Source: an uncultured Actinomycetota bacterium (GTDB taxonomy: Bacteria > Actinomycetota > Humimicrobiia > Humimicrobiales > Humimicrobiaceae). Taken from it: a stretch of 64,000 nt of DNA. Shown piece after piece: positions 1,446-57,268 of the stretch. The position numbers were made by a program, and so were the translations under genes. Below the pieces are notes generated by a model, which did no database searches, was not told the DNA's origin, and worked only from the letters and a program-made list of their open reading frames with translations. Position 1 is the first letter of the stretch. The number at the start of each line of letters is the position of its first letter. The stretch is taken from assembly GCA_964578625.1 (NCBI GenBank), contig CAZODQ010000001.1, forward strand, positions 153,793-217,792. Direction: 5' to 3'.

Positions 1446-1516
1446 TTTAATCCTCCTTGTTAAAATAAAAAAATGAAGAAGAAAATTATTCTTAATTAAT
1501 AAGAATAAGAGATTTT

Positions 1517-2482: not shown

Positions 2483-3174
2483 TTTTTTATCATAAATACA
2501 TTACCACTGATACAATCCTTAATGATATTATTTTTTAATCTCTTTAATTCTAAAAACTCATTAATAGCTTTTACAGCTCCTGGCCACTTTTCGATATCCA
2601 TTGGTTTATTATATTCATCAAAAGCTATTATTCCTCCTAAATTTACTTTATCATAAAAATAATTTATCGAATTTTTATACGATAAATATAAATCAAGGTC
2701 AAGATGTAACAATGCAATTGGACTTCCGTCATATAATGATAAACTTTCTGGTATAAAACCTTTAGCCAATATTATTTTCCTATCTATATCTGATTTAGAA
2801 ATGCCGAATTCATTTAAAGTTTTGTATACGTATTTGATATCAAACATTTTATATTCATCCATAGAATTTTCGTTAACTAAATTATCTTCATCGGTGAATT
2901 TAGGAAATCCTTCAAAAGAATCAAATCCCCAAACTAACCTATTTTTTTTATCTAATAAAGATAATAAACACATTATTGATAAAGTTATTCCCTCTCCTAC
3001 CCCACACTCTATTATATTTCCTTCTATATTTTCTATAGCTTTAAAAAGGTTGTGGAAATACAAAGATCTTCTTAGAATTTTATCATTAAATAATTTTAAA
3101 TTGGTTTTTTGTAAAGTTTTAATTTTGTTTTTATTGAACAACTTTAGGAATAATTTCTTTAGCTTCCTAAGCAT
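2479..3174 (-). CDS. TylF/MycF/NovP-family O-methyltransferase
   Basis: IEGNIIECGVGEG, WGFDSFEGFP, LLHLDLDLYLS, GGIIAFDEY and WPGAVKAINEF. Confidence 0.88.
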   Translation of the reverse strand: MLRKLKKLFLKLFNKNKIKTLQKTNLKLFNDKILRRSLYFHNLFKAIENIEGNIIECGVGEGITLSIMCLLSLLDKKNRLVWGFDSFEGFPKFTDEDNLVNENSMDEYKMFDIKYVYKTLNEFGISKSDIDRKIILAKGFIPESLSLYDGSPIALLHLDLDLYLSYKNSINYFYDKVNLGGIIAFDEYNKPMDIEKWPGAVKAINEFLELKRLKNNIIKDCISGNVFMIKK

Positions 3175-3192
3175 TTTTAACCCCCCGAATTT

Positions 3193-3999
3193 TTATTTTA
3201 ATTCTTTCCTTAAAGATTTAATAATATAATTGCAATGATCTGTCAAATCACTATCTTTTATTCTTATATACTCATTACTTAAATTATCGGAAATTATTTT
3301 TCCCATAGATGTATTAAAATTATACAGATATATTTCTCTAAAGTAATTTATTGCACCACTCTCGGTAGAATAACGCTCCCCATCAAATGCGAATAAATCT
3401 TTTATTTCTAATTCAGCAGATAATTGAAACAAAACATTTATATCATTTACATTGTTTATATAATAATCTAAATAAAATTCCCTCTTCCCTGATTTATTTA
3501 ATATTATAATTTTTTTATTTTTACATGATAAATAATTTAAATTCAAATCTAAAAATTGTATTATTCTTCTATTATAAAAAACCTCTTTAAATTTGAAATA
3601 CACAGTATCTATTACTCTTTGGAATTGTGAACACTTCGGATAGTATAATATATTTTTTTTACTAATAATTAATTCTTCAAACAATTCCCTTATTAATAGT
3701 TCTGGATTATTTAACTCATCTATATTATTTGCCCTCCCTGTAAAAATTGAAAATTTACCAGGATTTACACTGCATAAATGACTTCTTTTAACTAAAAAAA
3801 TATATTTATTATTTATAATTATAGAACCTCCACCAGAAACCCAAAAAAAAGTATTATCGTTTATTTTCTTATTGAATATTTTATCATTAACAATAAATCT
3901 CCTATTATCAACATTTCTGAGATCAACAACTAAATTATTGTCTCCCATAAAAATAGTTTTATCCCTGATTAAATTGATTATTTTAAAATATTCAGTCAA
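3193..3999 (-). CDS. Hypothetical protein with degenerate Nudix-like box
   Basis: IFLVKRS...NPGKFSIFTGRANNIDELNNPELLIRELFEEL resembles the Nudix GX5EX7REUXEE region. Confidence 0.5.
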   Translation of the reverse strand: MTEYFKIINLIRDKTIFMGDNNLVVDLRNVDNRRFIVNDKIFNKKINDNTFFWVSGGGSIIINNKYIFLVKRSHLCSVNPGKFSIFTGRANNIDELNNPELLIRELFEELIISKKNILYYPKCSQFQRVIDTVYFKFKEVFYNRRIIQFLDLNLNYLSCKNKKIIILNKSGKREFYLDYYINNVNDINVLFQLSAELEIKDLFAFDGERYSTESGAINYFREIYLYNFNTSMGKIISDNLSNEYIRIKDSDLTDHCNYIIKSLRKELK

Positions 4000-4002
4000 A
4001 AC

Positions 4003-5718
4003 TTACCTGTTAGTCATATAGCCCATTGTTGCATAAGAGCAGTTTATATTTTTTTCAAGTTCTTCTTGATTAAAAATACTCCAACCATCAAAAAATAAAA
4101 AAGGTTTATTAGTAAATTGGAGAGCTTTAAAAGTATTAAACTTATTATTTTCATAATGATTATTCATAATTAAAATTATATCAGTGTCTTTAAAACCATC
4201 ATAAATATTATCAATATAATAACACCCTAACTTTTCAATTTGATTCTTATCAACTATGAAATCTTTAACATATATATTATTCTTTTTGGGAAGCAGGTTA
4301 ATTAAGTCAACTGATACAGAATTTCTAATATCGGACGTTTCGGGAACTCCTTTAAATGCTAATCCAATTATAAGTATTTTTACATTGTTTATTCTTTTCC
4401 CTGTTTTTTTACAAAACTTCTTAATTTTATTATAAACATAATTTGCCCCAAATGAATTTATCTTCCTGCCTGCATTACTTAGAATTGCTCCTTCATTAAA
4501 CTCACTTTGGGATAAAGAAAATAAGAATGGATCTTTTGATAAGCATGGACCACCAACACCAGGACTTGGCTTAGATATAGGGTTCCTAATATAGCCATCA
4601 TTTGCTGAATCTATCAGTTTAAACGCATTTATATTATATTTTTCACATATGTAGGCTACCTCATTCGAAAAAGCGAAAGATAAATCTCTGTATGAATTAT
4701 TAACCAATTTTATTAATTCTGCTTCTTCCAAAGACTCGACATCTATTATAGCTTTTGTAATTTTATTAAATAATTTTGTAGTAAGCTCTACACTTTTCTC
4801 ATCGAATCCCCCAATAATTTGGGGTAATGTTCTCAATTCTTCTATTGCTATTCCTTCCACTGTTCTTTCTGGAGCAAAAGATATATAAAAATCTTCTCCT
4901 GCCTTATACCCATTTGATTGTAAAATTGGCAGAACTTCATTTCTGGTTGTTCCAACAGGAACAGTTGACCTAAGTATTACCAGGTCACCTTTTTTAATCT
5001 TATTAGCTATGTCTTGGCTTACTTTACGAATTTGAGACAAATCTGCAATTCTATTAGCTCTATCAAATGGTGTTCCCACACAAATAATATATATATCACC
5101 TTTATTATTATAAATATCTGAAGTAAATTGAATAGAATTCTCCTGAATAGTTGAGTTTAATAAAGAATCTAACCCATTTTCAAAAAAATGGGGCTTTCCC
5201 TTTTGTAAATTTTTTATAATATTTTTATCTTTATCTACACCAGTAACCTGTAAACCGGCATTTGACAAAACAACTGCCAGGGTTAATCCAATATATCCCA
5301 TACCATAAAGCATTATTTTTTTGTTATCTACGGTATCTTCAAAAATTTCAGAAAGTAAGACAACATCATAATAATAACCCTTGCTGTCAATTAATATAAT
5401 CTTTGAATATTTTTTATAAGGTTTATTTCTTTTTTTACATTGATCTAAAATACATTTAGCCATCTGACTTTTATCTAAATCCTTGCTTACTGCCACAGGA
5501 TTAAAATTTGCCACTTTCTCTACCTTATCATTTATACTAATCCCTTTTGAAATACCCCTCCGTATATCTCCATCGGTTAATACACCTATAACTTTATTAT
5601 CATCATTGACAACCACTGCCATACCTGCAATAAATTTATTATCATGACTCCCAGCCATTTTATTTATAGCATCTTTTATAAGAAAATCCTTTTTAATTAC
5701 ACCTTTAAACCTTTTCAT
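4003..5718 (-). CDS. Nucleotide-sugar (UDP-HexNAc) 6-dehydrogenase, WecC/TviB-like, with N-terminal CBS pair
   Basis: N-terminal GVLTDGDIRRG CBS signature, then YGMGYIGL, ICVGTP, ILRSTVPVGTT, FAPER, AELIKLVNNSYRD, PGVGGPCLSKDP and GLAFKG..TSDIRNS. Confidence 0.88.
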   Translation of the reverse strand: MKRFKGVIKKDFLIKDAINKMAGSHDNKFIAGMAVVVNDDNKVIGVLTDGDIRRGISKGISINDKVEKVANFNPVAVSKDLDKSQMAKCILDQCKKRNKPYKKYSKIILIDSKGYYYDVVLLSEIFEDTVDNKKIMLYGMGYIGLTLAVVLSNAGLQVTGVDKDKNIIKNLQKGKPHFFENGLDSLLNSTIQENSIQFTSDIYNNKGDIYIICVGTPFDRANRIADLSQIRKVSQDIANKIKKGDLVILRSTVPVGTTRNEVLPILQSNGYKAGEDFYISFAPERTVEGIAIEELRTLPQIIGGFDEKSVELTTKLFNKITKAIIDVESLEEAELIKLVNNSYRDLSFAFSNEVAYICEKYNINAFKLIDSANDGYIRNPISKPSPGVGGPCLSKDPFLFSLSQSEFNEGAILSNAGRKINSFGANYVYNKIKKFCKKTGKRINNVKILIIGLAFKGVPETSDIRNSVSVDLINLLPKKNNIYVKDFIVDKNQIEKLGCYYIDNIYDGFKDTDIILIMNNHYENNKFNTFKALQFTNKPFLFFDGWSIFNQEELEKNINCSYATMGYMTNR

Positions 5719-6400
5719 TAATTAAACCCTCCAACTCATTGAAAGTATTGATTTCAAAAATATTAAAAATTGAATATTTCTTTGATGTTCTGTTAATTAA
5801 GATAAAATCAACTTCTGCATCCCTGCTTAATTTATAATCATACAGATCATCACCAATAAATAGAAATTTTTCACTCCTGCAGCCAGTATTATTTTCTATA
5901 GATTTAAAATGGCTTTTCCCCTTCGTAAAATTATTTTCCGTTCCAAACACTCCCTTAATATTTTGCCTTAAATCTTTATTTAATTTTTTTGAAGTAAAAA
6001 AAATTAATTCTTCTTGGGGCATCGACGAAGAAATGAAAATATCTTTTTTATTTTTTACTAATAAATCCAAAAAGGATCTCGCGTCCTTGAAAATTTCTGC
6101 CTTTAATAAATTAATTTTATTTAATATGGAAAAATTTTTATTAAAGTTTGAATATTTTATTATGCTGCTATTAACATCTACTTCCCTTAAAATATTTTCA
6201 AATAAAGTCTTTCGCGGTAAACCCGAGTATTTTTCATATAGAAATTTAATCCTGCTTCTAAACATACAATCATTAACTCCAAAACCAATTAGTTTAGTTA
6301 TAGTTTCTATGAAATTTTCAACCTTAATATCCATAGAATCAATTATCGTTCCATCCCAGTCAAAAATGAAGATTTCCTTATTTTTTAAATTTAACTCCAT
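5705..6400 (-). CDS. HAD-superfamily hydrolase/phosphatase
   Basis: IFIFDWDGTIIDS (motif I), ISSS (motif II) and FIGDDLYD (motif IV). Confidence 0.85.
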   Translation of the reverse strand: MELNLKNKEIFIFDWDGTIIDSMDIKVENFIETITKLIGFGVNDCMFRSRIKFLYEKYSGLPRKTLFENILREVDVNSSIIKYSNFNKNFSILNKINLLKAEIFKDARSFLDLLVKNKKDIFISSSMPQEELIFFTSKKLNKDLRQNIKGVFGTENNFTKGKSHFKSIENNTGCRSEKFLFIGDDLYDYKLSRDAEVDFILINRTSKKYSIFNIFEINTFNELEGLINEKV

Positions 6401-7940
6401 GAATTAACTTCTTTAATAAATCTTTAATTCTTAAAAACTCCGCTACCTTCTTTAAGAAACTGTAAATCAAATTTTTTAAATATACAAATCCCTTTTCAAT
6501 TTTAAAACAAAATGGGAATATCCTAACTAAAAAATATAGAAATGCGTTCTTATTATATAAAAAGTTATAATCAAACAATTTTAAAAGTAACTTGTCCACC
6601 TTCCAGATTTTCTCTTTATTTAGATTATTAAAATTATACTTATTTATGTATTCTTCAAAAGCCTGCCTGGAAGGCAGCCTTTTATTTAATTCCTTAAACA
6701 TTACATCATCTAAGTTACAAAAGGAATTTGATTCAGCAAATCTATAAAGAGATGAACCGGGATATGGATAAGCAAATCCAAAACTGAAGACTATTTTTGT
6801 GTTTTTAATAAACTTTATTGTTTTTCTAATAGAATCGTAATTTTCTCCAGGCATATTTAATATAAAAGAACCACCAACAGTTATTGAGGTATTTTTAAAA
6901 TCATTTAAAATTTTATAATACCTCTCAACCGTAGTTTTTTTATTAAAACTTCTCAGCATTAAATTGTCTCCCGATTCAAAACCAAATCCTAATATAATGC
7001 AGCCGCTATCTTCAAGTAATTTAATTGTTTCCTCATCGTAATTGAAATCTGCCCTTGAAAGAGGTATATAAAATACTATTAATTTCCTGTTAATTATTTC
7101 GTTACAAAATTCTTTAACCCATTTTCTAGTAGATAATGTCAATGATTCTGTAAAATTAAAGGCATTGACATTATAAGCTTTCATTAAGTATTCCATATGA
7201 TCAACTAAATATTGAGGAGAAAAATTTCTTCTCATTAAATTCGCAGCTGCACAAAAATTGCATCTGCCGTAGCACCCTCTACCTGAAGTAATTGATGCAA
7301 GCCTTAAATTTCCATTTTTGCTATATTTTTTTATCCTTTTAATTTGAGATTGTTTTAAAGGGAAATCATAATTTTCCGGCTTGACATCCAAAATATAGTA
7401 TTCCATATCAAATAAATCATAAGCAGGAAAGGGTAAATCATCTAAGTACTTGGGAAACTCAAGGGATGGATTTTCAATATAATTACCTTTTTTATCCAAA
7501 TAACTTATACCAGGGATATTAATGATTGATTCATTATTAATAATAGCTTTTACGAAATCTGCAAGCATTAAATCAGCTTCTCCTCTAACAACATAATCCA
7601 CTTTTGTATTTCTTAGTATATATTCAGTGGTATATTCTGCCCAGGCCCCTCCTGCTAGTTGAACTACTTCAGGTAATTCTTTTTTTATCCCGGCTGAAAC
7701 TTCTTTATTAAAAAAAGATGCTTGTATAAATCCAGTCATTCCTACTATCTTCGGTTTTTCTTTAATAACTCTTAATACAACTTCTTCGCTATTTAGTTCT
7801 TCTGCACTTGCATCAATTACGGATACATTTATACCATTATTTCTTAGAATGGAAGAAAGCGTAGCTATCCCATGTGAAAAACCACTATACCCAAAACCAA
7901 AAGGATTTAGAAATATAATGTCATGTGCTGTATCTTTCAT
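6378..7940 (-). CDS. Cobalamin-binding (class B) radical SAM enzyme
   Basis: N-terminal B12-binding domain (GIATLSSILR..G..V.VID, AGGAWA, VRGEAD), SGRGCYGRCNFC CxxxCxxC motif, GFESG and NMPGE. Confidence 0.88.
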   Translation of the reverse strand: MKDTAHDIIFLNPFGFGYSGFSHGIATLSSILRNNGINVSVIDASAEELNSEEVVLRVIKEKPKIVGMTGFIQASFFNKEVSAGIKKELPEVVQLAGGAWAEYTTEYILRNTKVDYVVRGEADLMLADFVKAIINNESIINIPGISYLDKKGNYIENPSLEFPKYLDDLPFPAYDLFDMEYYILDVKPENYDFPLKQSQIKRIKKYSKNGNLRLASITSGRGCYGRCNFCAAANLMRRNFSPQYLVDHMEYLMKAYNVNAFNFTESLTLSTRKWVKEFCNEIINRKLIVFYIPLSRADFNYDEETIKLLEDSGCIILGFGFESGDNLMLRSFNKKTTVERYYKILNDFKNTSITVGGSFILNMPGENYDSIRKTIKFIKNTKIVFSFGFAYPYPGSSLYRFAESNSFCNLDDVMFKELNKRLPSRQAFEEYINKYNFNNLNKEKIWKVDKLLLKLFDYNFLYNKNAFLYFLVRIFPFCFKIEKGFVYLKNLIYSFLKKVAEFLRIKDLLKKLIHGVKFKK

Positions 7941-7957
7941 TTTAATTCATATAAATA

Positions 7958-9262
7958 TTATCTTATCTTTACCGGTTTTTCCCAGAAATAAGGCAATTTT
8001 ACAACACCTAAAAAAGAAAAAGACCAGTGAGGATTGTTATAGTTTTCAGGATTTGCCTCAATGATGAAATGCATAGCATTTTTTATGCCATCCTGCAAGT
8101 CTGGGGCATATATGCTTAAATTGGCATTATATTCTCCCGGTCTTAAATAATTAGGATCTATAATAATTCTTGTGTTATATTCACCTGGTCTTAACTCAAA
8201 TTCAAAAATGTCCGAAAGTGCTGAAAATACTGGCATTTCCAGCATATTCTTCGTTACAAAAGCAAGTTCAAGAAAATTTATTTTCCTGGTGACTCTAAAA
8301 TCTATAGAGAAAATAATTTTTTCTCCTTCTTTAAAAGCACTTTTGGAGTTATTATTATTTCCTAAAATTTTTCCACCTATGAAAAATACTTTGGTATTTT
8401 TTAAATTTATTTTGCTTTCAGGCCGTTTATAATTAGTATAATCGTAATTCCCATCTTTAAAATTTAAATCATTAGTCATACAGGTGCTTAGGTACATATT
8501 TACCACTTTATCAGTTTCATCAAAAGCAGCCATTTCACCGTTTTTTAGCAAAATACATTTCTCAGTTAAATTGCTTATTGCCGCCATATTATGACTTACA
8601 AATAAAACAGTCCTTCCTTCACTTTTTGATGCATACTCCATTTTCCCCAAACACTTTTTTTGAAATTGCGCATCACCTACTGATAAAACCTCGTCTACTA
8701 TTAAAATTTCCGGACTTAAATATGCTGCAACAGCAAAAGCTAACCTCACATACATACCTGAAGAGTATCTTTTAACCGGAGTATCAAGAAATTTCTCTAC
8801 TTCCGCAAACTCGACAATATCCTTAAACTTAACATTAATGTCTTTTTTTGACATTCCTAAAACTGCACCATTTAAATAAATATTCTCTCTTCCTGTTAAC
8901 TCAGGATGAAAACCTGTACCTACTTCCAGTAAACTTGAAACCCTACCACAAATTGTTGCTTTACCCTCTGTTGGTTCAGTAATTCTGCTTAAAATTTTTA
9001 AAAGTGTAGATTTACCAGCACCATTTTTACCTATTATACCTATCCTCTCACCCTTTTTTACCGAAAATGAAATATTCCTCAAAGCCCAGAATTCTTCTTT
9101 TATTGGCACAACAATATAATTATTTTTATGACCCTTAAAAATCTTTAAAAAGATTTTTTTGGATTTTTCATATATCTCATCTCTTAAAGTACTATAATTA
9201 CTTTGTTGATGTCTTATGATGTATTTTTTGCCTAAATTTTCAACTTTGATTGCCGTTTTCAT
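7958..9262 (-). CDS. wzt: Polysaccharide ABC transporter ATP-binding protein with Wzt C-terminal domain
   Basis: [49 protein letters not shown] and VSHN, plus a C-terminal beta-rich extension. Confidence 0.93.
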
Positions 9263-9266
9263 AAAA

Positions 9267-10100
9267 TTATATTCTATCTACAAATGTCCTTTCAGTCTTT
9301 CTAAAATACCATACTCCTATAAATAATAATATTGTTATTATAACAACAGAAAAAATTATACTTAATAATAAATAATTTGTCTGGGTTCCAAAAAAAGCCC
9401 ATCTAAATCCATCTATTATACCCACCATAGGATTTAAAGAATATATAACTCTCCATTTTTGAGGAATTACGTCACTGCTAAAACCTACAGGAGAAACATA
9501 AAGACCAAATTGAATCATAAATGGGACAATATACTGGAAATCCCTATATTTAACATTTAGAGAAGAAATTAAAAAACCTACACCGAGAGATAACAAAATA
9601 GCGAGGATTAAAAATAATGGTATAGTGACAACTTTCCAACCTGGTACAAATCTATACCAAAACATTAAAATTATCAATATTATAAAAGAAATTGAAAAAT
9701 CTATAAATGCAACAATTATGGAACTTGCAGGAACTATCATTCTTGGGAAGTATACTTTCGAAATCATTCCAGCATTACTGACAAGACTACCGCCACTGGA
9801 TTGTAAAGCATTGGCAAAAAATTGCCAAGGCAATAAAGCAACGAATACTAAAATTGGATAAGGCACGTTGTCTGAAGGCAATTTTGCAATTTTCCCAAAA
9901 ATAATTGTAAATACTATCATGGTCAATATAGGTCTTATTATACTCCAGGCAATTCCAATTACTGTTTGTTTATATCTGACTAAAATATCTCTCCATGATA
10001 AGAAAAAAAACAATTCCCTATATGCCCATAAATCAATTAAATATTGTTTTTCATGCTTTCCGGCTTGAATTACTGTTATATTTTTTTTAATTTCCTTCAT
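9267..10100 (-). CDS. wzm: Polysaccharide ABC transporter permease
   Basis: [32 protein letters not shown] and [12 protein letters not shown]; directly upstream of wzt. Confidence 0.93.
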
Positions 10101-10164
10101 GTAATTTATTGCTTAAACATTAAATATAATTTAATAATCTACAGCTGAAAATTAATATCTTAAA

Positions 10165-10192
10165 ATTATAAAGATTTATTTTTCTAGGTCAA
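10165..10192 (-). promoter_or_regulatory. Putative sigma70-type promoter of the wzm-wzt-modification operon
   Basis: Minus strand reads TTGACC-N16-TATAAT, ending 65 bp upstream of the wzm ATG. Confidence 0.55.
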
Positions 10193-10253
10193 ATACTTTT
10201 ATCTGACTGGCATTGCTTTAAACTAATTTTAAAAATTGATATATAGGAACTTT

Positions 10254-11564
10254 TTAGGAGTATTTCTGTAATTCATTCTGAAAATTAAATCCGATAGCCA
10301 AAGAAACTAGCATTGAAACAGGTATCATAACTGTAGTAGCTGATAAATAATTTTCAAAAAAAGAAATAACCAAAAGAATAAAAATGCTACCGATTGCAGA
10401 AAGAAACACCTTTTTATTAAAATCCTTTTTTGAATTATTATAATAATTCAATAATTTTACTAAACATAAAGACCAGAATAGCATTACAAGACCTAACCCT
10501 ATCACTCCAGTTTCTGTAAGAAATTGCAGATAAGAATTGTGTACGTGTCCACTATTATAATAAAAATTATTTTTCATATAAAATACAATAAAACCAGGAA
10601 AACCCTTTAGTCTTCCCAAGTCAAATAAATTCCAATCTATACTAAATATATCATTAAACCTGCCAAAACCCACTCCAAATAGTGGGCTTTGTGAAAATAG
10701 ATACCACGCCTTTTCCCATGTAAAAAATCTGATAACCGATGTACCCTCTCCAAATTGAAATATCTGAATAAATCTATGGTATACTCCCGTAAAATAAATC
10801 ACCGGGATTGATCCTAATATTAATATTCCTATAGTAATCAAGAATTTTTTTACTGATCTGTAACATAACCAGATAACAATTATAGAACCTGCAATAAAAC
10901 CTAGATAATTAGCCCTACTTTTTGTAAGAAATAATGCTGTTAAATTTATAATCAGCAACACTGCATACAATATTTTTAATCTCTTTTCTTTTTCTATCAG
11001 AAAAAAGACAAGTAAAAACATACAAGTTATAGCATATACTGAGCCCGTAGCATTATGTGCAAAATTAAGGGCAAAATAAACTTTACCAACGTCAGGTTCT
11101 GTATATACCATCAATGACAAATTACTCTGAAAGTACTCAACAATACCAAATATAGAGAATGTGGTAAAAATAACAAAAATAAATTGAAAATAATAATTTG
11201 CTAATTTTTTATAATTATAAGCCGGAAGCGCAAATGCAAAAAAAAGAATATAGCAGAAAAAGAAATTGCCATCAAACTTTAAAAATTGAAAAGATAGCAA
11301 GTTTAGAAACCTTTGACCTGAAACAAAATAGCTTAAAATAAAATAAACGTAAATTATTATCAAAATTGCAATTAACTCAGAATGGGAGGAAGTTACAGAT
11401 CTTTTTCTAATAAAGAAAATTAAACCAATCAATATAGAAATTAGAACTGATGAAATTAAAAAATACGGATATTTATTAACCAGTAAAAATAAAACAGGTG
11501 AAATAAGTAATATACAAGAGATTTTTTTGATTATTAATATAAATCTTTCTTTCAAGCTGAGCAT
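10254..11564 (-). CDS. O-antigen ligase / O-oligosaccharyltransferase (Wzy_C) family membrane protein
   Basis: Many TM segments, LTKSRANYLG, R...WEKAWYLFSQSPLFGVGFG and HVHNSYLQFLTETGVIG. Confidence 0.85.
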   Translation of the reverse strand: MLSLKERFILIIKKISCILLISPVLFLLVNKYPYFLISSVLISILIGLIFFIRKRSVTSSHSELIAILIIIYVYFILSYFVSGQRFLNLLSFQFLKFDGNFFFCYILFFAFALPAYNYKKLANYYFQFIFVIFTTFSIFGIVEYFQSNLSLMVYTEPDVGKVYFALNFAHNATGSVYAITCMFLLVFFLIEKEKRLKILYAVLLIINLTALFLTKSRANYLGFIAGSIIVIWLCYRSVKKFLITIGILILGSIPVIYFTGVYHRFIQIFQFGEGTSVIRFFTWEKAWYLFSQSPLFGVGFGRFNDIFSIDWNLFDLGRLKGFPGFIVFYMKNNFYYNSGHVHNSYLQFLTETGVIGLGLVMLFWSLCLVKLLNYYNNSKKDFNKKVFLSAIGSIFILLVISFFENYLSATTVMIPVSMLVSLAIGFNFQNELQKYS

Positions 11565-11600
11565 CTCAATTATACTGTATGTTGTCTTATTGCTTATTAA

Positions 11601-12713
11601 TTATATTGCCTTATTTTTATAGTCACTATACTTGTAATTTATAAAATTCATTATTTTTTTCTTAAAAATATCTCTATCAAATCTTAATGCATTTTCTCTT
11701 ATTTTATTTCTATCAAAGCTGCTTTCAATTTTTAGAAACCTTTTTACAGTCTCTATAAGAGCATCTTTTGAGTTCTTGCTAAAGAATAAACCTGTTACTC
11801 CGTCTAAAACAGTTTCAAGCGCTCCACCATCAGCAAAAGCAATAACAGGTCTCCCATTTGCCTGGGCTTCAACAGGTGTTATTCCAAAATCTTCTTTGCC
11901 TGGAAATATGTATGCTCTACACTTACTATAGATCTCCTTTAAGCTTATATCATCAAGTCTTCCTAAAAATTCTATATTTTTGTTTTTGACCATACTCTCA
12001 AGAGTTTTTCTGTAAGGACCTGTTCCAACTATTTTCAAATTCAAACCCAAATCATTAAAAACATCAATTACAAGGTCGATATTCTTATAAGCATTAAGAC
12101 GTGACACTATTAAAAAATAATCTTCAGTTTTACTTGCTATACTAAAATTTTTAACATTTACTGGAGGGTAGATTACCTCTGCTTTCCTATTATAACAATT
12201 CTTTATTCTTTCTTTTATATAATTTGAAATGGCTACATAATAATCAACCCTGTCTATTGTTGCAATATCCCATCTTTTTAATTTCTTTATTAGCAATGGC
12301 AATATTTTTCGGGTAAACTTTCCAAAATCTTCCTTTTCAACATAATTTTTATAATTCCAGACAAACCTCATCGGAGTATAGCAGTAACATATATGACATG
12401 CATCTTTATCTTTTATCGCTCCCTTTGCAAAAGCGCTACTACTGCTTAAAATAAGATCATAACCACTCAAATCAAAACTCTCAATTGCTTTTGGATAAAA
12501 TAACAGATACTTCTTAAAATGCTTATCTAAGAAAGGAAACTTCTGCATGAAAGATGTCCTTATATTCATCTGTCCGAATATTGGAGGTAACTTATCCTTA
12601 TCAAATATTGAAGTAAGTATTGAAGCAGTGGGAAAAAGCTCACTAAAAACCTCTATTACCCTTTCTGCACCACCATATTGATTTAAGTAATCATGGACTA
12701 TGGCTATCTTCAT
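11601..12713 (-). CDS. GT4 glycosyltransferase (WbaZ-like mannosyltransferase type)
   Basis: MKIAIVHDYLNQYGGAERV, CYCYTPMRFVW, VIYPPV and EDFGITPVEAQANGRPVIAF. Confidence 0.9.
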   Translation of the reverse strand: MKIAIVHDYLNQYGGAERVIEVFSELFPTASILTSIFDKDKLPPIFGQMNIRTSFMQKFPFLDKHFKKYLLFYPKAIESFDLSGYDLILSSSSAFAKGAIKDKDACHICYCYTPMRFVWNYKNYVEKEDFGKFTRKILPLLIKKLKRWDIATIDRVDYYVAISNYIKERIKNCYNRKAEVIYPPVNVKNFSIASKTEDYFLIVSRLNAYKNIDLVIDVFNDLGLNLKIVGTGPYRKTLESMVKNKNIEFLGRLDDISLKEIYSKCRAYIFPGKEDFGITPVEAQANGRPVIAFADGGALETVLDGVTGLFFSKNSKDALIETVKRFLKIESSFDRNKIRENALRFDRDIFKKKIMNFINYKYSDYKNKAI

Positions 12714-12732
12714 AAATTCCCTGTTGTATTAA

Positions 12733-13623
12733 TTAGTTATTATCTGAAGTCTTAAAATGATTTACAACAAAAGCTGCGATAATCCCAATTACTGCAGATG
12801 CTATAAAACTTAATAAAATATTTCTTAAATAATTAGAAGTATTTACTACACCATCAAGTTCTGGCGGTTTATTTATCTGTATCCTATTTATAAAATACTC
12901 CTCATTGTCCAACATATTATTTTGTATTGAAGTAAGAAATACATATTTATTATATTCTTCATCAAATTCTTTTAAGAGTAGAGTGTCTTTTTCATTTTTT
13001 TCCAAATCACTTACTAGATCTGAAAGTAGTCTTTCAGTAACACTAATTTCAATCTTCAGTTTTTCAACCACAGAATCATAAGCTTCCTTGCGTTCTTTAA
13101 CCTTTACATCTATATATGAATCCAAGATAGCCTTATTAATGCCATATGCAAGTCCCTTTGTTTTTGCATAGGTTGTCAGTGTGACAATTCCATTCCACCT
13201 GTCTATTGTAATGTTTACTGATTTAATTAATTGTGATTTTGTAAAATCATTATTAGTAAACTCATCCTTTAGCAAATTTATAGCATCACTGATCAGTGGC
13301 TCAGATTTAATTTCTGAATCAATGGGATCTAACTTTCCTACTATATAATCTATTCTCTTTTCGTTTTCAACTCGAGGTATTATCCATAAACTGTTTGCTT
13401 CATCTGGAAGATATTCATAAAATTCATCATTATAATAAATTTCATTATTGGATAAAGTTATTTGAGAAACTGAACTGTATTCAGGGGAAACCAGAAATGT
13501 ATAAGCCATACCAATAATAAAAACTAAAATAAAAGCAATAATAAAAGCTGATTTTCTTTTAATTAAAATTTTAAAAAATACTTTTAAATTGACTTCATCA
13601 ACATTTTGATTCTTTTTGTCCAT
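12733..13623 (-). CDS. Wzz/polysaccharide co-polymerase-like membrane protein
   Basis: N-terminal EVNLKVFFKIL plus TM plus P.Y.S.S motif, a central coiled-coil region and a C-terminal TM helix. Confidence 0.7.
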   Translation of the reverse strand: MDKKNQNVDEVNLKVFFKILIKRKSAFIIAFILVFIIGMAYTFLVSPEYSSVSQITLSNNEIYYNDEFYEYLPDEANSLWIIPRVENEKRIDYIVGKLDPIDSEIKSEPLISDAINLLKDEFTNNDFTKSQLIKSVNITIDRWNGIVTLTTYAKTKGLAYGINKAILDSYIDVKVKERKEAYDSVVEKLKIEISVTERLLSDLVSDLEKNEKDTLLLKEFDEEYNKYVFLTSIQNNMLDNEEYFINRIQINKPPELDGVVNTSNYLRNILLSFIASAVIGIIAAFVVNHFKTSDNN

Positions 13624-13882
13624 TAAAATTCTAGTTATATTTTACAATTCTATATTGATAGTTTCTTTTACTTTTAGCATGAATAAATTATCAATTAAAT
13701 GATTTTAAAAATCAAGAAATTTAAATTACTTATATATTTATGTAAGGAATTTTTTAAAAAGCATTCTTGCTTTTCTATAAAAAATTTTTTGATGATATAA
13801 TAAAGCGTTGATGCTTTCAATCTTTTCGAAAGGCTAATATTTTTGTTAATTAAGATATTCTCAGAATCAAGGATTAAAAAAT

Positions 13883-14608
13883 TTGGATTTGTTTCTTAGT
13901 ATAATTATACCCGCATATAATGAACAAAGATGCGTCGGAAATACATTAGATAAGGTTCTGGATTACTTTAGAAATAAAAAGTACCCCATCGAAATAATTT
14001 GTGTAAATGACGGAAGCAATGACAATACACTTAATATAATAGAAGAATACAAAAAAATAAATTTCAATAAGGTTGACATGAAAATAATTAATAATAAAAA
14101 TAATTCAGGCAAAGGTTATTCAGTAAGAACAGGAGTTTTGGCCTCCAATGGGAAATATGTATTATTTACCGATGCGGACCTCTCAACACCAATAGAAGAA
14201 GTTGATAAGTTTCTTAGAATTATTGAAGAAGGTTATAATGTAGTCATAGGCTCAAGAGATTTACCAGGCTCAAATATTATTCAGAGACAGCATATCATTA
14301 GGGAATCAATGGGAAAATTTTTTAACTTTTTGGTAAGAATAATAATGAACTTTAAATACAGGGATACTCAGTGTGGTTTTAAGCTCTTTGATAGAAAGTC
14401 AGCTAATAACATTTTTCCTAAGTTAAATATAAATGACTTTAGTTTTGATGTAGAAATTTTATACCTTGCAAAAAAGTTGGGATTAAAAGTTAGGGAAGTG
14501 CCTATAACCTGGAACAACTCAAAAGATTCAAAGGTCAGGATAATTAGAGATTCGTTCCGAATGCTCTTAAGCTTGATTAGAATAAAAAAAATTCACAAGA
14601 AAATATAA
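13883..14608 (+). CDS. GT2 polyprenol-phosphate glycosyltransferase (dolichyl-phosphate beta-glucosyltransferase family)
   Basis: LSIIIPAYNE, VNDGSNDNT, GKGYSVRTG, FTDADLSTP, DTQCGFKLF and FSFDVEILYLA; TTG start. Confidence 0.9.
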   Translation: MDLFLSIIIPAYNEQRCVGNTLDKVLDYFRNKKYPIEIICVNDGSNDNTLNIIEEYKKINFNKVDMKIINNKNNSGKGYSVRTGVLASNGKYVLFTDADLSTPIEEVDKFLRIIEEGYNVVIGSRDLPGSNIIQRQHIIRESMGKFFNFLVRIIMNFKYRDTQCGFKLFDRKSANNIFPKLNINDFSFDVEILYLAKKLGLKVREVPITWNNSKDSKVRIIRDSFRMLLSLIRIKKIHKKI

Positions 14609-14618
14609 TCCTTTGCCT

Positions 14619-18414
<3,796 letters not shown>

Positions 18415-52491: not shown

Positions 52492-53757
52492 TTATAGAAT
52501 ATCTAAACAGTAAATCCGCCAGGTAAAAGCGACTTTACCCAATTTGGAAATAGGATTTACGATATCCAGATTTATGTCCGCAAGCTGTGAACCCGAAGCA
52601 TACTTAAATCCTAAGTTGACTGCATCCGTATTTATCTTTGAATATATTTTGGATTCTATTCCGGCTCTCCTATATTCCTTTTTAATACCCAAGATCAGTG
52701 ACCTGAATCTTGTGTATCCTTTAGTTTTTAGCCTCTTCCGTACTAGGTTAAAGATCTTAATATCCCTGACCAGATCCCTCCGGCTTAAGAAGCGCTTTGA
52801 AGGCATATACTTCTGCCCGTCGTCAAAATCATAAATTATCTCGTTTATATCGGGAAAATTTACCGATACTCCTATAGGCTCCCCATTCTTTTCTATAATG
52901 AATATCAGCTCTTCCATAGATATGGCCTTTATGCCCATTGCCAGATAATTGAATTCCGCATCGGTCAATCTTACCTGCTGGGGATGCTTTTCGGTGTCCC
53001 AGATGTCATTATAAAGCTCTCTTATTCTCTTAATCTCATTTCTGTAATCCTTAAAGTCAGCACACCTTATATTTACCCCGTCAAATTTACTTCCGTTTTT
53101 ACTGGAGATCTTAAGCAGAATTCTTTCAACCCTGTCCATATAATTCTTACTGATATCACTATCAGTTACTATACTGTACCAGTCATTTTCCTTCCTAAAA
53201 CCGTACTGCTCAAAAAACTCCTTATAATACGGAGCATTATACGGCTCCATAAAATAGGGCACGTTTTCAAACCCGTCTATAAGAAGCCCTACTTCTCCTC
53301 CGGCATTGAACTTTGCAGGGCCTATTATCCTGCTGCATTCGTACCCCTTTAGATAATCAATCGCACTACCTATCAGCATATTTGCAACATCCTTATTTTC
53401 AATAGATTCAAATAGACCCAGCCATCCAAACCTGTCATTGTATTTCTGGTTATAGTTGTAATCTATAAAGGACATTACTCTTCCCACAGGCCTGCCATCG
53501 TCATAAGCAATAAAGAATTTGATCTGCGCATGGTCAAAAAAGGGATTCCTGCCGATTATTCCCGGTAATCTAAAAGATGTGGGATTCAGAGATTCAATTT
53601 CCTGGATAAAAAGGGGAAATACTTTCTTTGACTGTCCGCTACTATACCAGTCTATATAATAGGGTACGATTACGAATTCTTTCAGCCTGTTTAAGTTTAA
53701 ACTGTTAAAGGAACCCGGCCTGTATTCACCAAGTTCCCTTATATGAAATCCTGGCAT
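52492..53757 (-). CDS. GNAT-fold protein of the YghO-like family
   Basis: NPFFDHA, GRPVGR, FGWLGLFE, GLLIDGFE..PYFMEPYNAPYY, PDINE and ILGIKKEYRRAGI. Confidence 0.72.
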   Translation of the reverse strand: MPGFHIRELGEYRPGSFNSLNLNRLKEFVIVPYYIDWYSSGQSKKVFPLFIQEIESLNPTSFRLPGIIGRNPFFDHAQIKFFIAYDDGRPVGRVMSFIDYNYNQKYNDRFGWLGLFESIENKDVANMLIGSAIDYLKGYECSRIIGPAKFNAGGEVGLLIDGFENVPYFMEPYNAPYYKEFFEQYGFRKENDWYSIVTDSDISKNYMDRVERILLKISSKNGSKFDGVNIRCADFKDYRNEIKRIRELYNDIWDTEKHPQQVRLTDAEFNYLAMGIKAISMEELIFIIEKNGEPIGVSVNFPDINEIIYDFDDGQKYMPSKRFLSRRDLVRDIKIFNLVRKRLKTKGYTRFRSLILGIKKEYRRAGIESKIYSKINTDAVNLGFKYASGSQLADINLDIVNPISKLGKVAFTWRIYCLDIL

Positions 53758-54006
53758 ATATACCGTAGAAATCTCCTTATTGTAAATAGAGGTAATTATA
53801 ATCTATATTGCGGGGCTTCTCAACCGAAAAAGGAGATAATTTTTAAACTAAAGTGGTTATGGGATAGTTATAATTCAAAGTGGTAATCTAAGTGTTAAAA
53901 TTTCGAATCAGTTTTTAAGTAAAATTCTTAAATTAAGGAGTATAATTAACTGATTCTTAGTATTTTTCAATTATAATTAAATACTATATATAGTAAGTAG
54001 AAATTA

Positions 54007-54960
54007 CTATTTACCGATGTCAACTTCAATTTCTGCTATATTTAGCTTCTTTTTATTAATCCAAACAAAACCTTGATTTGGCGTAATCACTACTACATCT
54101 ACAGGACCCCCTACACCAGGTATATCTCCTGGATTACCTCTTATACCATCAGAAAATCGTTGAATAGCTGAAGTAGTCTGAATCATTAAAACACAAAAAT
54201 CAATTGCATCTTGAAGAGTCATTGTACCCCATTGGATGACATATTCTAAATTTCTTAATTGTTTATTAATCTCGTTTTGCCCTAGCTTCTGAGTTGATTC
54301 TCTAATAAAATTTATGTTTCCAATTCTTCCATCAAATCCTAAAACAATTCTAGAGACTACGTCAATTTGGCCAGACCAAGTAGCACCATATTCCTTTCCC
54401 TTTTCAGCACTACTCCTTTTTCTTTGAATTTCACCAGGAATATGACACATATAAACTTCATGACTACCATCTTCATTATATCCAGCAATTAGAAGATTAA
54501 TCATATCTACTCCGCCGGCTCCTTCTTTTATCTGGTCCTTTTGATCTTTAAAGCGGAATTTAATAATATATCCTTCTTGTTTTATTTCTAGAATTTCACA
54601 TCCTTGTTTCTGTAAATCGCTTCTTATTTTATCAGGTAATTTTTTTAATTGTTCTTGATAATTGTATTTTTTATCAAACAAATAATAAAGCTTCTCAGCT
54701 GTTTCTTTTACACTTAACTTTTGTATATCAACTTTAGTTTTAAACTCATCGATAAACTTACTAATATTCTTCATTACTCCATCTTCTGGTAAGAAAGCAA
54801 GCCCAGTAATAGCTAAACCTACTCGTTTATTAATCTGAAAAAGTTTAGATGCATTATCAGAGCCAATTCTAGCCATACCTTTTCTATTACGAAAAGATTG
54901 CCTACTATCTGCTGCAAGTACAATTCCTTCTGGTGTAGTTGTATTAATTGCTAAAGACAT
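54007..54960 (-). CDS. Proteasome-beta/HslV-like Ntn hydrolase (N-terminal Ser nucleophile)
   Basis: (M)SLAINTTTPEGIVLAADSR...SKLFQI..VGLAITG matches the T1-D17-K33-G47 layout; LLIAGY; C-terminal MTLQDAIDF...VGGPVDVVVIT. Confidence 0.8.
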   Translation of the reverse strand: MSLAINTTTPEGIVLAADSRQSFRNRKGMARIGSDNASKLFQINKRVGLAITGLAFLPEDGVMKNISKFIDEFKTKVDIQKLSVKETAEKLYYLFDKKYNYQEQLKKLPDKIRSDLQKQGCEILEIKQEGYIIKFRFKDQKDQIKEGAGGVDMINLLIAGYNEDGSHEVYMCHIPGEIQRKRSSAEKGKEYGATWSGQIDVVSRIVLGFDGRIGNINFIRESTQKLGQNEINKQLRNLEYVIQWGTMTLQDAIDFCVLMIQTTSAIQRFSDGIRGNPGDIPGVGGPVDVVVITPNQGFVWINKKKLNIAEIEVDIGK

Positions 54961-55948
54961 AATTAGTAAAATTATTATTAATTAAATTTGGAAAATTACT
55001 AGAAATATCTCTTAATAATATTCTATCGTTTGATTGAATATTGGTTTTTGTAATATCAACTATGAAAAAGATTCTTAAATCATTTTTATCTTTATCGGTT
55101 CTCCTCGACCAATAAAGAATCTCACCACTCTTTTTTAATGCACCACCATATATTGGGAAATCTACACAATTAGACAATGATTTAAGTTTTAATCTCATTC
55201 TTTTTATAAAATTTTTAACAGCCTTTTTACTTCTAGAGATGGAAAATAACCTAAATTGACCTGTATTATCGATATAATTAATATCTTCTGTGTTACCATA
55301 CTCTTGACCAAAACGAAAAAAATGATTTGATGAAGAACCAGACCATATTACCTCGTATAATGGGTGTTCATCTAGTATTGTATATCCATTAGTATCATCA
55401 AGAATTGGTATTTTTGGTGTTACAATTAATACATTGTAATTTTCAATAAAGTATTTTTGAGTTGTATCATATAATCCATCAAAGTTTGATTTCTCAGCAA
55501 CAAATTGAGTCCTATTATAAGAATTATATTCTTCAGTCCTATTTTGGCTCTGTAATGAAATAATCTCACTGCTATCAATAATAGTCTTACTCAAATTAGA
55601 AATTTTACCATAATTTATGGTAATACATTCAGAAGTTTCCCATATAGAATTATTTTTTTCATCAGAATATATAAAATCTAGATTTTGTTGCATATTATCA
55701 AAATAGTTTTTTTCTCTCTCTATTTCTTCAACAATTTCAGGTTTTAAAGTTATTGCTCTAGGACAATGATGTTCTCTTTTTAAAAATCCCTTTTTTCCTA
55801 TAGCATCCAATAGGTCTTTAACAGTTTGCTTAGAGAAAACACCAAGTTTTTTTGCAAGCTCAGCCAAAGAAGGAGTTATTCCTTTTTCTCTTTGCCCTTC
55901 ATAGATTAATTTTATTACTTCACGTTGTCTATCTGTTAATTGTTTCAT
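54944..55948 (-). CDS. LexA-type winged-helix DNA-binding protein with unrecognised C-terminal domain
   Basis: LTDRQREVIKLI......GITPSLAELAKKLGV.SKQTV...L..I.KKGFLKR....PRAI is the LexA N-terminal domain pattern. No Ala-Gly cleavage site or S24 Ser-Lys motif is visible downstream. Confidence 0.75.
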   Translation of the reverse strand: MKQLTDRQREVIKLIYEGQREKGITPSLAELAKKLGVFSKQTVKDLLDAIGKKGFLKREHHCPRAITLKPEIVEEIEREKNYFDNMQQNLDFIYSDEKNNSIWETSECITINYGKISNLSKTIIDSSEIISLQSQNRTEEYNSYNRTQFVAEKSNFDGLYDTTQKYFIENYNVLIVTPKIPILDDTNGYTILDEHPLYEVIWSGSSSNHFFRFGQEYGNTEDINYIDNTGQFRLFSISRSKKAVKNFIKRMRLKLKSLSNCVDFPIYGGALKKSGEILYWSRRTDKDKNDLRIFFIVDITKTNIQSNDRILLRDISSNFPNLINNNFTNYVFSN

Positions 55949-55981
55949 ATTTCTATTATAACTAATTCGTAATTCTTTAAA

Positions 55982-56009
55982 ATTATACCTGAAATAAGTC
56001 AGGTGTCAA
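55982..56009 (-). promoter_or_regulatory. Consensus sigma70 promoter containing a palindromic operator
   Basis: Minus strand reads TTGACA CCTGACTTATTTCAGG TATAAT. Palindrome ACCTGA-N6-TCAGGT at 55987-56004; the -10 ends 33 bp before the ATG at 55948. Confidence 0.85.
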
Positions 56010-56050
56010 GTAAAATATTTATAATTATTGTTATTTTAGAGTGATCTTAC

Positions 56051-57268
56051 CTATTCCTCTTTCCCAAAGAAATAATCTATCAGCTTATATCCTTCCTTAA
56101 AATACAGGCCTGTATTCATGGCCCTAAACTCATCGAATCTTTTATACTTCCCGCCGGCTGACTTTGTGCTGTCATAGATAAGAAACGGCACAGGTTCTGA
56201 TGTATGAGTCTTCTTCCTTATAGGAGTGTAGTGGTCGGGAAGTATCATCATCTTATAATCAACCTCTTCTTTATCCATATTTTCCTTTATGACTCCTATG
56301 ACTTCCCTGTCTATTATCTCTATTGCCTTCACCTTATTCTCCACATCTCCGTGATGGCTGCATTCATCTGCAGCTTCCAGGTGAATATATACGAAATCCT
56401 TTCCCCCTATAAGCTGGCTTACAGCGGCATCAGCCTTGCCGCTAAAATTGGTATCAATATTTCCGGTTGCACCTTCTACCGTGACCGGTTCGAGCCCGGC
56501 CAAAACACCGATGCCTCTTATAAGGTCTACGGCCGATATTATTGAACCCCTTAACTTATATTTTCCGTAGAAGCTGTCCAGATTGGGCTTTTTGCCTTCT
56601 CCCCATATCCATATCGAATTTGCAGGTCTCATGCCGTCTTTCACCCTTTTCCTATTTATAATATGATCTTCCAGCAGGGCAATGCTCTTTACTATCATTC
56701 CCAAAAGTATATTCTCGCCCGGACCCTTGGGCAAGAATTCGGCGATCTTCTTACCTGTTATGTCATGAGGCGGGGTCAGAATATTCCTGTCTGGACCGTC
56801 CTTCCATACTATTATATGCCTGTAACTTACTCCTGGGTAAAACCTGATACTCTCAGTCTGAAGCTTGTTTTTGATATCCCTGATAAGTATTCTGGACTTG
56901 TCGGTAGGGATCTCTCCCGCACTGTAGTCTATCATGACTCTATCTGTATAATCATATTCTTTAGATAATGTGACCAGATTGCACCTGAATGCTACATCCT
57001 TCTCCAGAAGATTAATGCCCATACTTGCAGCCTCAAGCGAAGCGCGGCCAGTATGATATTCTTTAGGGTCATACCCTAAGACTGACAGATTTGCAACATC
57101 GCTTCCGGGCGGCATTCCATCGGGAACAGTTTTGGCTGTCCCCATTTCGCTGTCTTTGGCAAGTCTGTCCAAAACCGGTGTTTTCGCATACTGCAGGGGA
57201 GTCTTATTTTTAAGTTTCCCTATCCTGTAATCCGCCATCCCGTCTATTATTATTACTATATATTTCAT
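56051..57268 (-). CDS. apgM: Cofactor-independent phosphoglycerate mutase ApgM family (possible homoserine phosphotransferase)
   Basis: IIDGMAD, KTPLQ.A.TP, PGSDVANLS, GRASLEA, PPHDI, SAVDLIRG, HLEAADECSH.G and PDHYTP...TH. Confidence 0.88.
   Translation of the reverse strand: MKYIVIIIDGMADYRIGKLKNKTPLQYAKTPVLDRLAKDSEMGTAKTVPDGMPPGSDVANLSVLGYDPKEYHTGRASLEAASMGINLLEKDVAFRCNLVTLSKEYDYTDRVMIDYSAGEIPTDKSRILIRDIKNKLQTESIRFYPGVSYRHIIVWKDGPDRNILTPPHDITGKKIAEFLPKGPGENILLGMIVKSIALLEDHIINRKRVKDGMRPANSIWIWGEGKKPNLDSFYGKYKLRGSIISAVDLIRGIGVLAGLEPVTVEGATGNIDTNFSGKADAAVSQLIGGKDFVYIHLEAADECSHHGDVENKVKAIEIIDREVIGVIKENMDKEEVDYKMMILPDHYTPIRKKTHTSEPVPFLIYDSTKSAGGKYKRFDEFRAMNTGLYFKEGYKLIDYFFGKEE

Follow-up and report, generated by a model that had tools for sequence, protein, structure and literature searches.

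A variable two-gene cassette couples a LexA-type winged-helix gene to a proteasome-like hydrolase gene in an uncultured Actinomycetota bacterium

The stretch of DNA examined here (the window) comprises 64,000 nucleotides (nt) of contig CAZODQ010000001.1 from an uncultured Actinomycetota bacterium of the family Humimicrobiaceae (assembly GCA_964578625.1). Between apgM and a gene for a GNAT-like protein it carries a cassette of about 2.2 kb with two genes, A and B, which encode a protein with a LexA-type winged helix-turn-helix (wHTH) and a proteasome-like N-terminal nucleophile (Ntn) hydrolase, respectively. This report describes the anatomy of the cassette, the recurrence of LexA-type genes directly upstream of B in other bacteria and the variability of the site that the cassette occupies, and weighs the explanations that these observations allow. 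The host genome is designated G000, two congeners G001 and G004, and the loci compared are given L numbers.

The cassette and its two genes

The features of the cassette, which ends in an AT-rich 3' tail, are listed in Table 1. Its neighbors are apgM (Pfam PhosphMutase, E 2.8e-57) on one side and a gene whose 421-aa product matches GNAT weakly (E 4e-6) on the other; farther out lie thrC, SppA and a V-type ATPase subunit (names read by eye), as well as a 448-aa open reading frame (ORF) past thrC. Alignment with the two congeners and the breakpoints of metagenome contigs agree on both borders (53840/53841 and 56045/56046). Homology among G000, G001 and G004 stops right behind the apgM stop codon and restarts ~90 nt upstream of where the GNAT gene begins, in front of a GNAT promoter that is conserved, and in three soil metagenome runs from another study contigs break off from the window sequence at 53840 and contig pieces start at 56046, with one loose end listed there.

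Table 1. Features of the cassette, in positions of the window
Feature	Position	Strand	Remarks
Variable cassette: promoter, gene A, gene B and 3' AT-rich tail	53841..56045	-	Flanks conserved
Sigma-70-type promoter TTGACA-16 nt-TATAAT	55982..56009	-	12/12 consensus positions
Palindrome ACCTGA-n6-TCAGGT, candidate operator	55987..56004	.	Sits between the -35 and -10 hexamers
Gene A: LexA-type wHTH protein, 334 aa, with orphan C-terminal region	54944..55948	-	
Gene A residues 1-71: LexA-type winged helix-turn-helix	55736..55948	-	PF01726, PDB LexA chains, VIA-align, hhalign
Gene A residues ~86-334: conserved orphan region	54947..55693	-	No known family
Gene A stop/gene B start overlap, 17 nt	54944..54960	-	Also in L046, L047, L048, L049
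Gene B: proteasome-like Ntn hydrolase, 317 aa	54007..54960	-	PF00227

Four lines of comparison relate the N-terminal part of A to LexA. Residues 1-65 match Pfam LexA_DNA_bind (PF01726; E 1.1e-14, 54.4 bits against a cut-off of 23.7), a profile of 23 A homologs retrieved LexA chains from the PDB at E 3.6e-8 over residues 1-70 only, VIA-align superposed 72 residues of the A model on 1leb (Z 11.0, root-mean-square deviation (rmsd) 2.1), and hhalign against the host's own LexA covered residues 3-71 only, at 35% identity. No match of A to Peptidase_S24 (PF00717) was obtained even at E<=1, it has no Ala-Gly cleavage loop, and its score against NCBIfam lexA (TIGR00498) is 48 bits, below the cut-off of 111. 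The host keeps a separate canonical LexA of 209 aa, with an S24 domain, on another contig.

The rest of A appears to be a conserved but orphan region, since a profile search of 1.84 billion cluster representatives that returned ~4,100 proteins at E<=0.001, nearly all of them matching in the wHTH only, contained the full-length architecture in just some 9-10 clusters plus fragments. Many invariant polar residues occur in this region in the alignment of homologs, and it found no Pfam, PDB or Atlas match; the best-scoring Atlas candidate (DUF6441, hypothetical proteins; score 0.85) lay below the trustworthy level and was rejected. Foldseek and VIA-align searches with the A model matched the wHTH alone, residues 89-334 being poorly modelled and barely probed in this way. 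Only 22 close relatives of A came to light apart from the protein of the window itself, and PADLOC-DB 2.0 yielded one weak match, on the helix-turn-helix (HTH; E 0.0023).

By its modelled structure B is a proteasome-fold (alpha-beta-beta-alpha sandwich) Ntn hydrolase. The Pfam Proteasome family (PF00227) covers residues 9-55 only (30.4 bits against a cut-off of 22.4), and a profile of 27 homologs aligned residues 8-97 and 282-305 with the Thermoplasma beta subunit, with ~180 inserted residues between them; the AlphaFold2 (AF2) model has extra strands at 122-183 and helices at 198-270. When the model was compared with 48,161 chains by VIA-align, the best 17 matches were proteasome beta/alpha subunits, Anbu and HslV (Z 8.1-12.1, 126-172 residues aligned, rmsd 2.9-5.1), and model residue 2 fell on chain residue 1 in rows 1, 6, 7 and 17 (a beta-type subunit, human immunoproteasome chain K, a designed Anbu and HslV) as well as on residue 1 of BPH. 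Every top match of B in Foldseek was a proteasome subunit, at E ~1e-3. Partial T-fold-like matches (FolX, QueF-like, dihydroneopterin aldolase) were also recorded for model residues ~31-176 at Z ~6, and probably reflect a mere common beta-beta-alpha-alpha-beta-beta arrangement.

Across the 27 aligned homologs Met1 is invariant and is followed by Ser in 24 and by Thr in 3, while Asp18, Lys39 and Gly53 are invariant and lie in a stretch that aligns with the active-site stretch of the T. acidophilum beta subunit; we take these three residues to be the counterparts of proteasome Asp/Glu17, Lys33 and Gly47. The sequence thus read predicts an intact, propeptide-less active site and catalytic activity. 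B is the sole PF00227 match found in the host genome, which is 94.7% complete; the same genome yielded no Pup ligase, and its best score against HslU (TIGR00390) was 99 bits, below the cut-off of 362, for a 434-aa ORF that could be ClpX-like. Anbu partner genes are not among the flanking genes examined, no family search for them having been made. B matched 0 families of PADLOC-DB 2.0. A complex prediction for B with A residues 60-334 scored 0.00, was run without controls and is counted neither for nor against an interaction.

The promoter is the sole 12/12 site among 18 promoter-like sites in 53600-56200 (shuffled sequence gave a mean of 13.9 sites), and its layout recurs: all 8/8 gene A upstream regions (7 distinct sequences) contain TTGACA, ACCT[T/G]AC-n4-GT[C/A]AGGT and TATA(T/A)AT in that order. 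A scan of the host genome for operator-like sites returned 10, against 10 in the control, and the sole other site with <=1 mismatch lies inside a Wzy-like ORF; as there is no excess of such sites, the cassette appears to regulate only itself. The overlap of the two reading frames, for its part, predicts translational coupling of B to A. The host's canonical lexA (L003, G000:C8, upstream of 1713) has the promoter box CGAAC-n4-GTTTG, a Cheo-box-like SOS operator unlike that of gene A, and hence there is no sign of SOS control of the cassette.

Most of this anatomy had been proposed in an earlier note, which was made from the letters of the window alone. The block that it placed at 53830-56050 has borders very close to those found here; the consensus promoter with its palindrome, the 17-nt overlap, the LexA-type wHTH without an S24 peptidase in gene 1 and the proteasome-type catalytic layout in gene 2 were all confirmed. 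Its statement that proteasome partners are missing held for HslU above the cut-off, for Pup ligase and for any other PF00227 protein in the genome, and for Anbu partners within the neighborhood only.

Recurrence of the pairing and variability of the site

B directly follows A in all six loci (L046, L047, L048, L049, L005, L007) in which A is whole or nearly whole and downstream sequence is available; two further A loci end inside A and were left out of this count. Within these loci A is 48-60% and B 77-80% identical, A diverging two to three times faster, and the A-linked B proteins form one clade with support of 100/96 (8 rows, 6 of them with A). Among the first 32 B loci only 2 have A, and three out of three searched genomes with B and no adjacent A lacked A elsewhere too.

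LexA-type genes other than A also precede B. Of the 13 B genes in the Patescibacteria sample, eight are immediately preceded, on their own strand, by a LexA-type wHTH gene (one locus was not assessable); the spacing is <=15 nt in seven, and in L065 the wHTH gene overlaps the B start. These eight partners are full-length A (L057, which is the L005 locus), a distant A-like protein of 307 aa (L065) and proteins of 265, 221, 225, 220, 143 and 101 aa, and their C-terminal parts are mutually unrelated, consisting of a 30-aa low-complexity tail, membrane-like hydrophobic tails (judged by eye) or a 260-aa orphan domain. Among the seven new partners PF01726 scored above the cut-off in 5, below it in 1 and was absent from 1 that is a clear homolog of another partner; no S24 domain was found in the wHTH partners. 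Over all bacterial B loci examined, a LexA-type wHTH gene stands directly upstream in 10/25, the base rate being 2-3 PF01726 genes per genome in each of 5 such genomes, with one of these genes adjoining B. One patescibacterial wHTH-B operon (L060, 1685-3172) has as its divergent neighbor a gene for a canonical LexA complete with S24 domain.

The promoter design extends to some of these operons. In three of the seven that are not of the A type, a perfect inverted repeat of a different sequence each time is placed between the -10 element and a TTGAC-type -35 (ACCGAAC-n5-GTTCGGT; ACTCCACCA-tt-TGGTGGAGT; TTTACTACA-ataa-TGTAGTAAA), so that the predicted operator within the promoter varies with the type of repressor.

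The position between apgM and the GNAT-like gene is occupied differently in the congeners. Gene order in G001 is like that of the host (V-ATPase, SppA, GNAT ... apgM, thrC), and its gap (L032, 6001-8741) lacks A and contains a B that runs in the opposite direction and belongs to the other bacterial clade (68% identity). The neighbors of this B are a papain-family (Peptidase_C1) protein and a 156-aa ORF without a known family; no convincing host-type LexA box was seen upstream of this partner-less B. G004 is devoid of B, and its gap (L042, G004:C5, 2159-7913) is filled by a 5.7-kb AT-rich insert with an ankyrin-repeat lipoprotein, a thioredoxin-like/permease/ArsR unit and two toxin-antitoxin-like pairs (nucleotidyltransferase-type; RelE/ParE-like), all named by eye. 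In the three soil metagenome runs near-identical A and B pieces occur alongside contigs that depart at 53840 and 56046, and what replaces the window sequence at 53840 looks, by eye, like the G001 allele. Coexisting alleles and breakpoints at the borders point to a strain-level hotspot at which this cassette is one allele among several. An apgM-GNAT site with no insert at all was not observed, and in G002, G003 and G006 apgM is not beside the GNAT gene within the stretches examined. The ends of the cassette have no terminal inverted repeats or target-site duplications, merely short two-copy repeats as expected by chance, and there is no integrase or transposase within it.

The GC content of the cassette is 28.3%, against 38-45% in the adjoining flanks and a window median of 36.6%. 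Outside the cassette, windows of <=30% GC all belong to a surface-polysaccharide cluster at ~0.5-18 kb. This cluster (window ~550-17800, down to 24.6% GC) includes genes for NeuB, a TylF-type methyltransferase, a UDP-sugar dehydrogenase, a B12 radical-SAM enzyme, Wzm/Wzt, a Wzy-like ligase, GT1, Wzz and YfhO.

The view of the earlier note that the block is a self-contained insert agrees with the presence of B in 1 of 40 relatives of the host and with the other cargo found in the same gap of two congeners; the pair is accessory and no vertically inherited core. Co-occurrence of the two genes in other genomes, whose absence the note had named as a ground for refutation, is borne out by the six A-B loci, and the pairing proved broader than the note had supposed, extending to other LexA-type proteins in Patescibacteria. 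The block is AT-rich relative to its flanks, as the note described, and is not unique in this respect (see below).

These observations are explained best, and in our judgment probably, by a horizontally acquired, self-contained and autorepressed two-gene operon that carries B as its payload. According to this model A, as a dimeric LexA-type winged-helix protein, would bind the palindrome that its own promoter carries between the two hexamers and would hold itself and the coupled B at a low level, with negative feedback as a buffer. B would be an ATPase-independent Ser/Thr N-terminal-nucleophile hydrolase, probably of the PMI-3 group described below, that acts on a probably very conserved substrate, and any rise in expression would require the inactivation of A by way of its variable C-terminal part, either by signal sensing or by proteolysis. 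Slowly evolving effectors with fast-evolving regulators are common where the target of the effector is conserved and the regulator adapts to the host or to a signal. The high identity of B across domains suggests that it is strongly constrained and probably has a conserved target.

Several observations weigh against this explanation. AT-richness is not exceptional in the window, where 14.7% of equal-sized windows are equally AT-rich. No LexA-type neighbor is present at 15/25 bacterial B loci (one of them not assessable) and likewise at 20/20 loci of Methanobacteriaceae; so many solitary loci imply that B needs no such repressor and is unlikely to be harmful by itself. The loci were gathered by similarity to the B of the window and from one phylum, and relatives among them are not independent, for which reasons 10/25 overstates the number of independent events. 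A script search found no perfect inverted repeat in 4/7 of the operons that are not of the A type. Lastly, both AF2 models are mediocre, with a pLDDT (predicted local distance difference test) of 65 for B and of 56 for A, in which residues 80-181 are of low confidence.

The B family and competing explanations

B belongs to a family that is highly conserved and patchily distributed. A word-index search returned 1,494 relatives; the top 120 share 71-91% identity with B and, where source labels exist (few), are assigned to Korarchaeota, Atribacteria, Desulfobacterales and several Patescibacteria lineages. A scan with one genome per GTDB species gave 32 B loci, comprising 12 bacterial loci (Patescibacteria groups, Atribacterota, Clostridia and others) and 20 of Methanobacteriaceae, the latter with proteins 60-65% identical to the B of the window. 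From Patescibacteria to Methanobacterium the identity of B is 60-91%, and mean column identity over 27 sequences from Bacteria and Archaea is 79%. At the same time the gene occurs in only 2/41 genomes of the host kin set (G000 included) and in 13/401 evenly drawn Patescibacteria genomes (~3%). Searches of 50,697 phage records and 72,556 plasmid records, and of IMG/VR with two invariant peptide patterns, did not retrieve B.

Some individual B loci deserve mention. In a Saccharibacteria metagenome-assembled genome (MAG; L006, 4955-7083) B lies between tRNA-Ile(GAT) and tRNA-Ala(TGC), a pair usual in the spacer of rRNA operons, and tRNA genes are often within ~300 nt of the unit (L006, L007/L051, L009, L010, L011; a tRNA 3' end in L049). 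L066 (G433:C13, 1501-2448) contains a B homolog with one in-frame TAG, which may represent a pseudogene, a sequencing error or recoding. The MAG of L007 (G042) is labelled 'Pseudomonadales', measures only ~0.9 Mb and has B and A of the Patescibacteria type, so its label or binning is doubtful.

A catalogue of 22 new proteasome homologs (Fuchs, Alva, and Lupas, 2021; PMC8665760) includes PMI-3, a 'proteasome homolog with multiple insertions', with a Ser/Thr1-Asp17-Lys33-Gly47 active site, no propeptide and large insertions after H1/H2 and between H3/H4. PMI-3 is reported there from 'other Bacteria' and Euryarchaeota (28 nr90 sequences, reduced to 11 at nr70), an AAA+ partner was not found for it, and the insertions may hinder ring formation (PMC8665760, section 3.3). 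B has in common with this group the proteasome-like Ntn active site, the predicted lack of a propeptide and the absence of a detected AAA+ partner, and is probably a member; the assignment is a fit by description, with which the inserted residues, the spread and the high conservation of B agree, and PMI-4 is the alternative. The authors of the catalogue state that they saw no genomic context or co-occurrence pattern hinting at a function. B is linked here to a LexA-type repressor, and on that basis the link looks unreported.

Gene context in the archaea raises the question of an ordinary accessory protease. In most of the 20 Methanobacteriaceae loci (L012-L031, ~3.2-9.5 kb of each) B is embedded, in a conserved gene order, among three DNA glycosylase genes (Adenine_glyco/Tag, Pur_DNA_glyco/MPG and OGG_N + HhH-GPD, OGG/AlkA-like), together with ORFs of 171 and ~215 aa and a GAF protein, and this synteny may link B to base-excision or alkylation repair. 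In bacteria RmuC is encoded near B in L033 and L035. On this explanation B would clear damaged or unfolded proteins without ATP, possibly under DNA-damage or alkylation stress, and A would be a local repressor for which several others could be exchanged, without any switch or defense logic. It accommodates the glycosylase cluster, the RmuC neighbors, the canonical lexA beside the L060 operon and the status of B as the only proteasome-family protein detected in a host in which neither HslV nor HslU was detected. Occurrence in 3% of Patescibacteria and in 1/40 relatives of the host is nevertheless odd for a housekeeping enzyme, very high conservation across domains points to a specific rather than a general substrate, and the host's lexA box is unlike the operator of A, so that we regard this explanation as rather unlikely. 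A role near DNA damage is retained as a lead only, based on the archaeal glycosylase cluster, the RmuC and restriction-modification (RM) neighbors and the lexA gene beside the L060 operon.

The RM neighbors bear on a further explanation, namely a toxin-antitoxin (TA)-like or abortive-infection module in which B would be a toxic protease directed against a universally conserved host protein, and A would repress the operon and neutralize B via its C-terminal part. At 3/25 bacterial loci the B unit is immediately preceded by RM genes of its own strand: L005 (2224-4962) has a TdeIII-type match with two methylases, L035 (4041-5901) an MjaI-type match with a methylase, and L064 (53-1482) a MutH/MvaI-like (endonuclease-type) gene preceded by a 270-aa ORF. 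The overlapping layout, with a predicted DNA-binding autorepressor first as the presumptive antitoxin, is that of type II TA systems, the effector is far more conserved than the regulator, and the same hotspot holds TA pairs in G004 (named by eye). A toxin would, however, be expected always to be accompanied by its antitoxin, and B is alone at the 15/25 bacterial and 20/20 Methanobacteriaceae loci mentioned above, stably syntenic in Methanobacterium. PADLOC-DB, with nothing for B and a single weak match for A, and the phage, plasmid and IMG/VR searches lend the idea no support, and mutually unrelated partner tails are hard to reconcile with a conserved neutralizing interface. We consider such a module improbable.

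The same tails, together with the missing S24 domains, suggest a different possibility, in which repressor and protease would form a two-piece analog of LexA: on a signal, B would cleave or degrade A in trans, replacing the S24 domain and creating a positive-feedback switch. The order of genes, wHTH and then protease, mirrors the order of domains in LexA, none of the wHTH partners has an S24 domain of its own, and nothing but B stays constant in the pairing. Partners of just 101 and 143 aa, the shortest, end in a mere low-complexity tail and offer no space for a sensor domain, which makes proteolysis of the repressor attractive and B the obvious candidate for it; to judge from the discussion in the catalogue (PMC8665760), such a tail is the type of substrate that an ATPase-less proteasome homolog could take. 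Split switches made of a repressor and a protease are known, namely IrrE/DdrO (PMC12828697) and CapP/CapH (10.1101/2022.04.27.489752). Against the idea, no obvious common motif is visible behind the wHTH among the partner sequences (inspected by eye, without alignment), most B genes have no such partner, and constitutive cleavage would lead to runaway induction, so that an extra trigger would be needed. Cleavage of A by B is a tentative proposal that we think unlikely on present evidence; it is a specific version of derepression and as such is compatible with the autorepressed operon favored above. More speculative, and somewhat less likely again, is a 'LexA in two pieces' in which a signal-gated, sequence-specific Ntn protease would destroy its own repressor and perhaps also a universally conserved host protein, as a minimal mobile stress or abortive-infection switch spread among Patescibacteria, other bacteria and methanogenic archaea.

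Relation to known systems and significance

The proposed autorepressed operon resembles several known systems in part. With canonical LexA it shares the N-terminal winged helix of A and a palindromic operator at its own promoter. LexA possesses an S24 Ser-Lys autopeptidase and an Ala-Gly cleavage site, whereas A has neither, has a different candidate operator and has a regulon that apparently consists of its own operon alone. Controller (C) proteins of RM systems are likewise encoded by a small HTH gene just upstream of, and overlapping, a potentially harmful effector gene, with a palindromic operator in their own promoter, a design that suits genes moving between hosts; these proteins are XRE-type, ~80 aa in length, and control nucleases. 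The cassette differs from them in its LexA-type wHTH with variable tails and in having a proteasome homolog as effector.

Closer in logic are ImmR/ImmA, DdrO/IrrE and CapH/CapP, which are also pairs of an HTH repressor and a separate peptidase encoded by two genes, often in mobile or defense loci. In those systems cleavage of the repressor by the protease lifts repression, a step that is hypothetical for A and B, and they use XRE-type HTH repressors and M78/COG2856 zinc metallopeptidases and control other cargo. In contrast, the cassette has a LexA-type repressor, an Ntn hydrolase (B matches the Proteasome family only) and no further cargo. A LexA-type wHTH and Ntn hydrolase pair would therefore be a new variety among known repressor-plus-protease pairs.

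On the enzyme side, HslV, Anbu and BPH are, like B, bacterial proteasome-fold Ntn hydrolases with a Thr or Ser nucleophile exposed after removal of Met (predicted in the case of B), and the B model matches them with Z values of 11.2 (designed Anbu), 8.1 (HslV) and 7.6 (BPH) in VIA-align. Sequence similarity is limited to the N-terminal ~50 and the C-terminal ~25 residues of B. HslV has ~175 aa and is encoded with HslU, whereas B has 317 aa and HslU was not found above the cut-off; it is because of the insertions that B is ~130-140 residues longer than HslV and BPH.

Two suggestions of the earlier note fared less well. A stress or anti-phage role is not borne out, given that B has no PADLOC match and RM genes are upstream at so few of the bacterial loci. 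The idea of an undescribed system needs qualification: the B family is already catalogued among proteasome homologs (PMC8665760), while its pairing with a repressor looks unreported. The literature searched, which left most subscription journals outside, yielded only the 2021 catalogue and the papers citing it for this pairing or for any characterized PMI protein. Relative to that literature the recurrent LexA-type partner and the operator design are new, and the B family itself is catalogued and uncharacterized.

The recurrence of the wHTH-B pairing in many small-genome bacteria constitutes a first genomic clue to the function of the B family. A dedicated, apparently self-repressing LexA-type regulator with a readable operator gives one of the 22 catalogued homologs a gene context, and the family becomes testable: operator and promoter can be turned into a reporter, the repressor is a candidate substrate or a control handle, and the cassette is small enough to be transferred to a laboratory strain. 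If B does cut its repressor, a third unrelated class of protease would join the repressor/protease switches, beside the S24 serine-lysine peptidases and the M78 metallopeptidases. A two-piece analog of LexA, if true, would be the first case of a PMI-type proteasome homolog with a regulatory role and with a known substrate.

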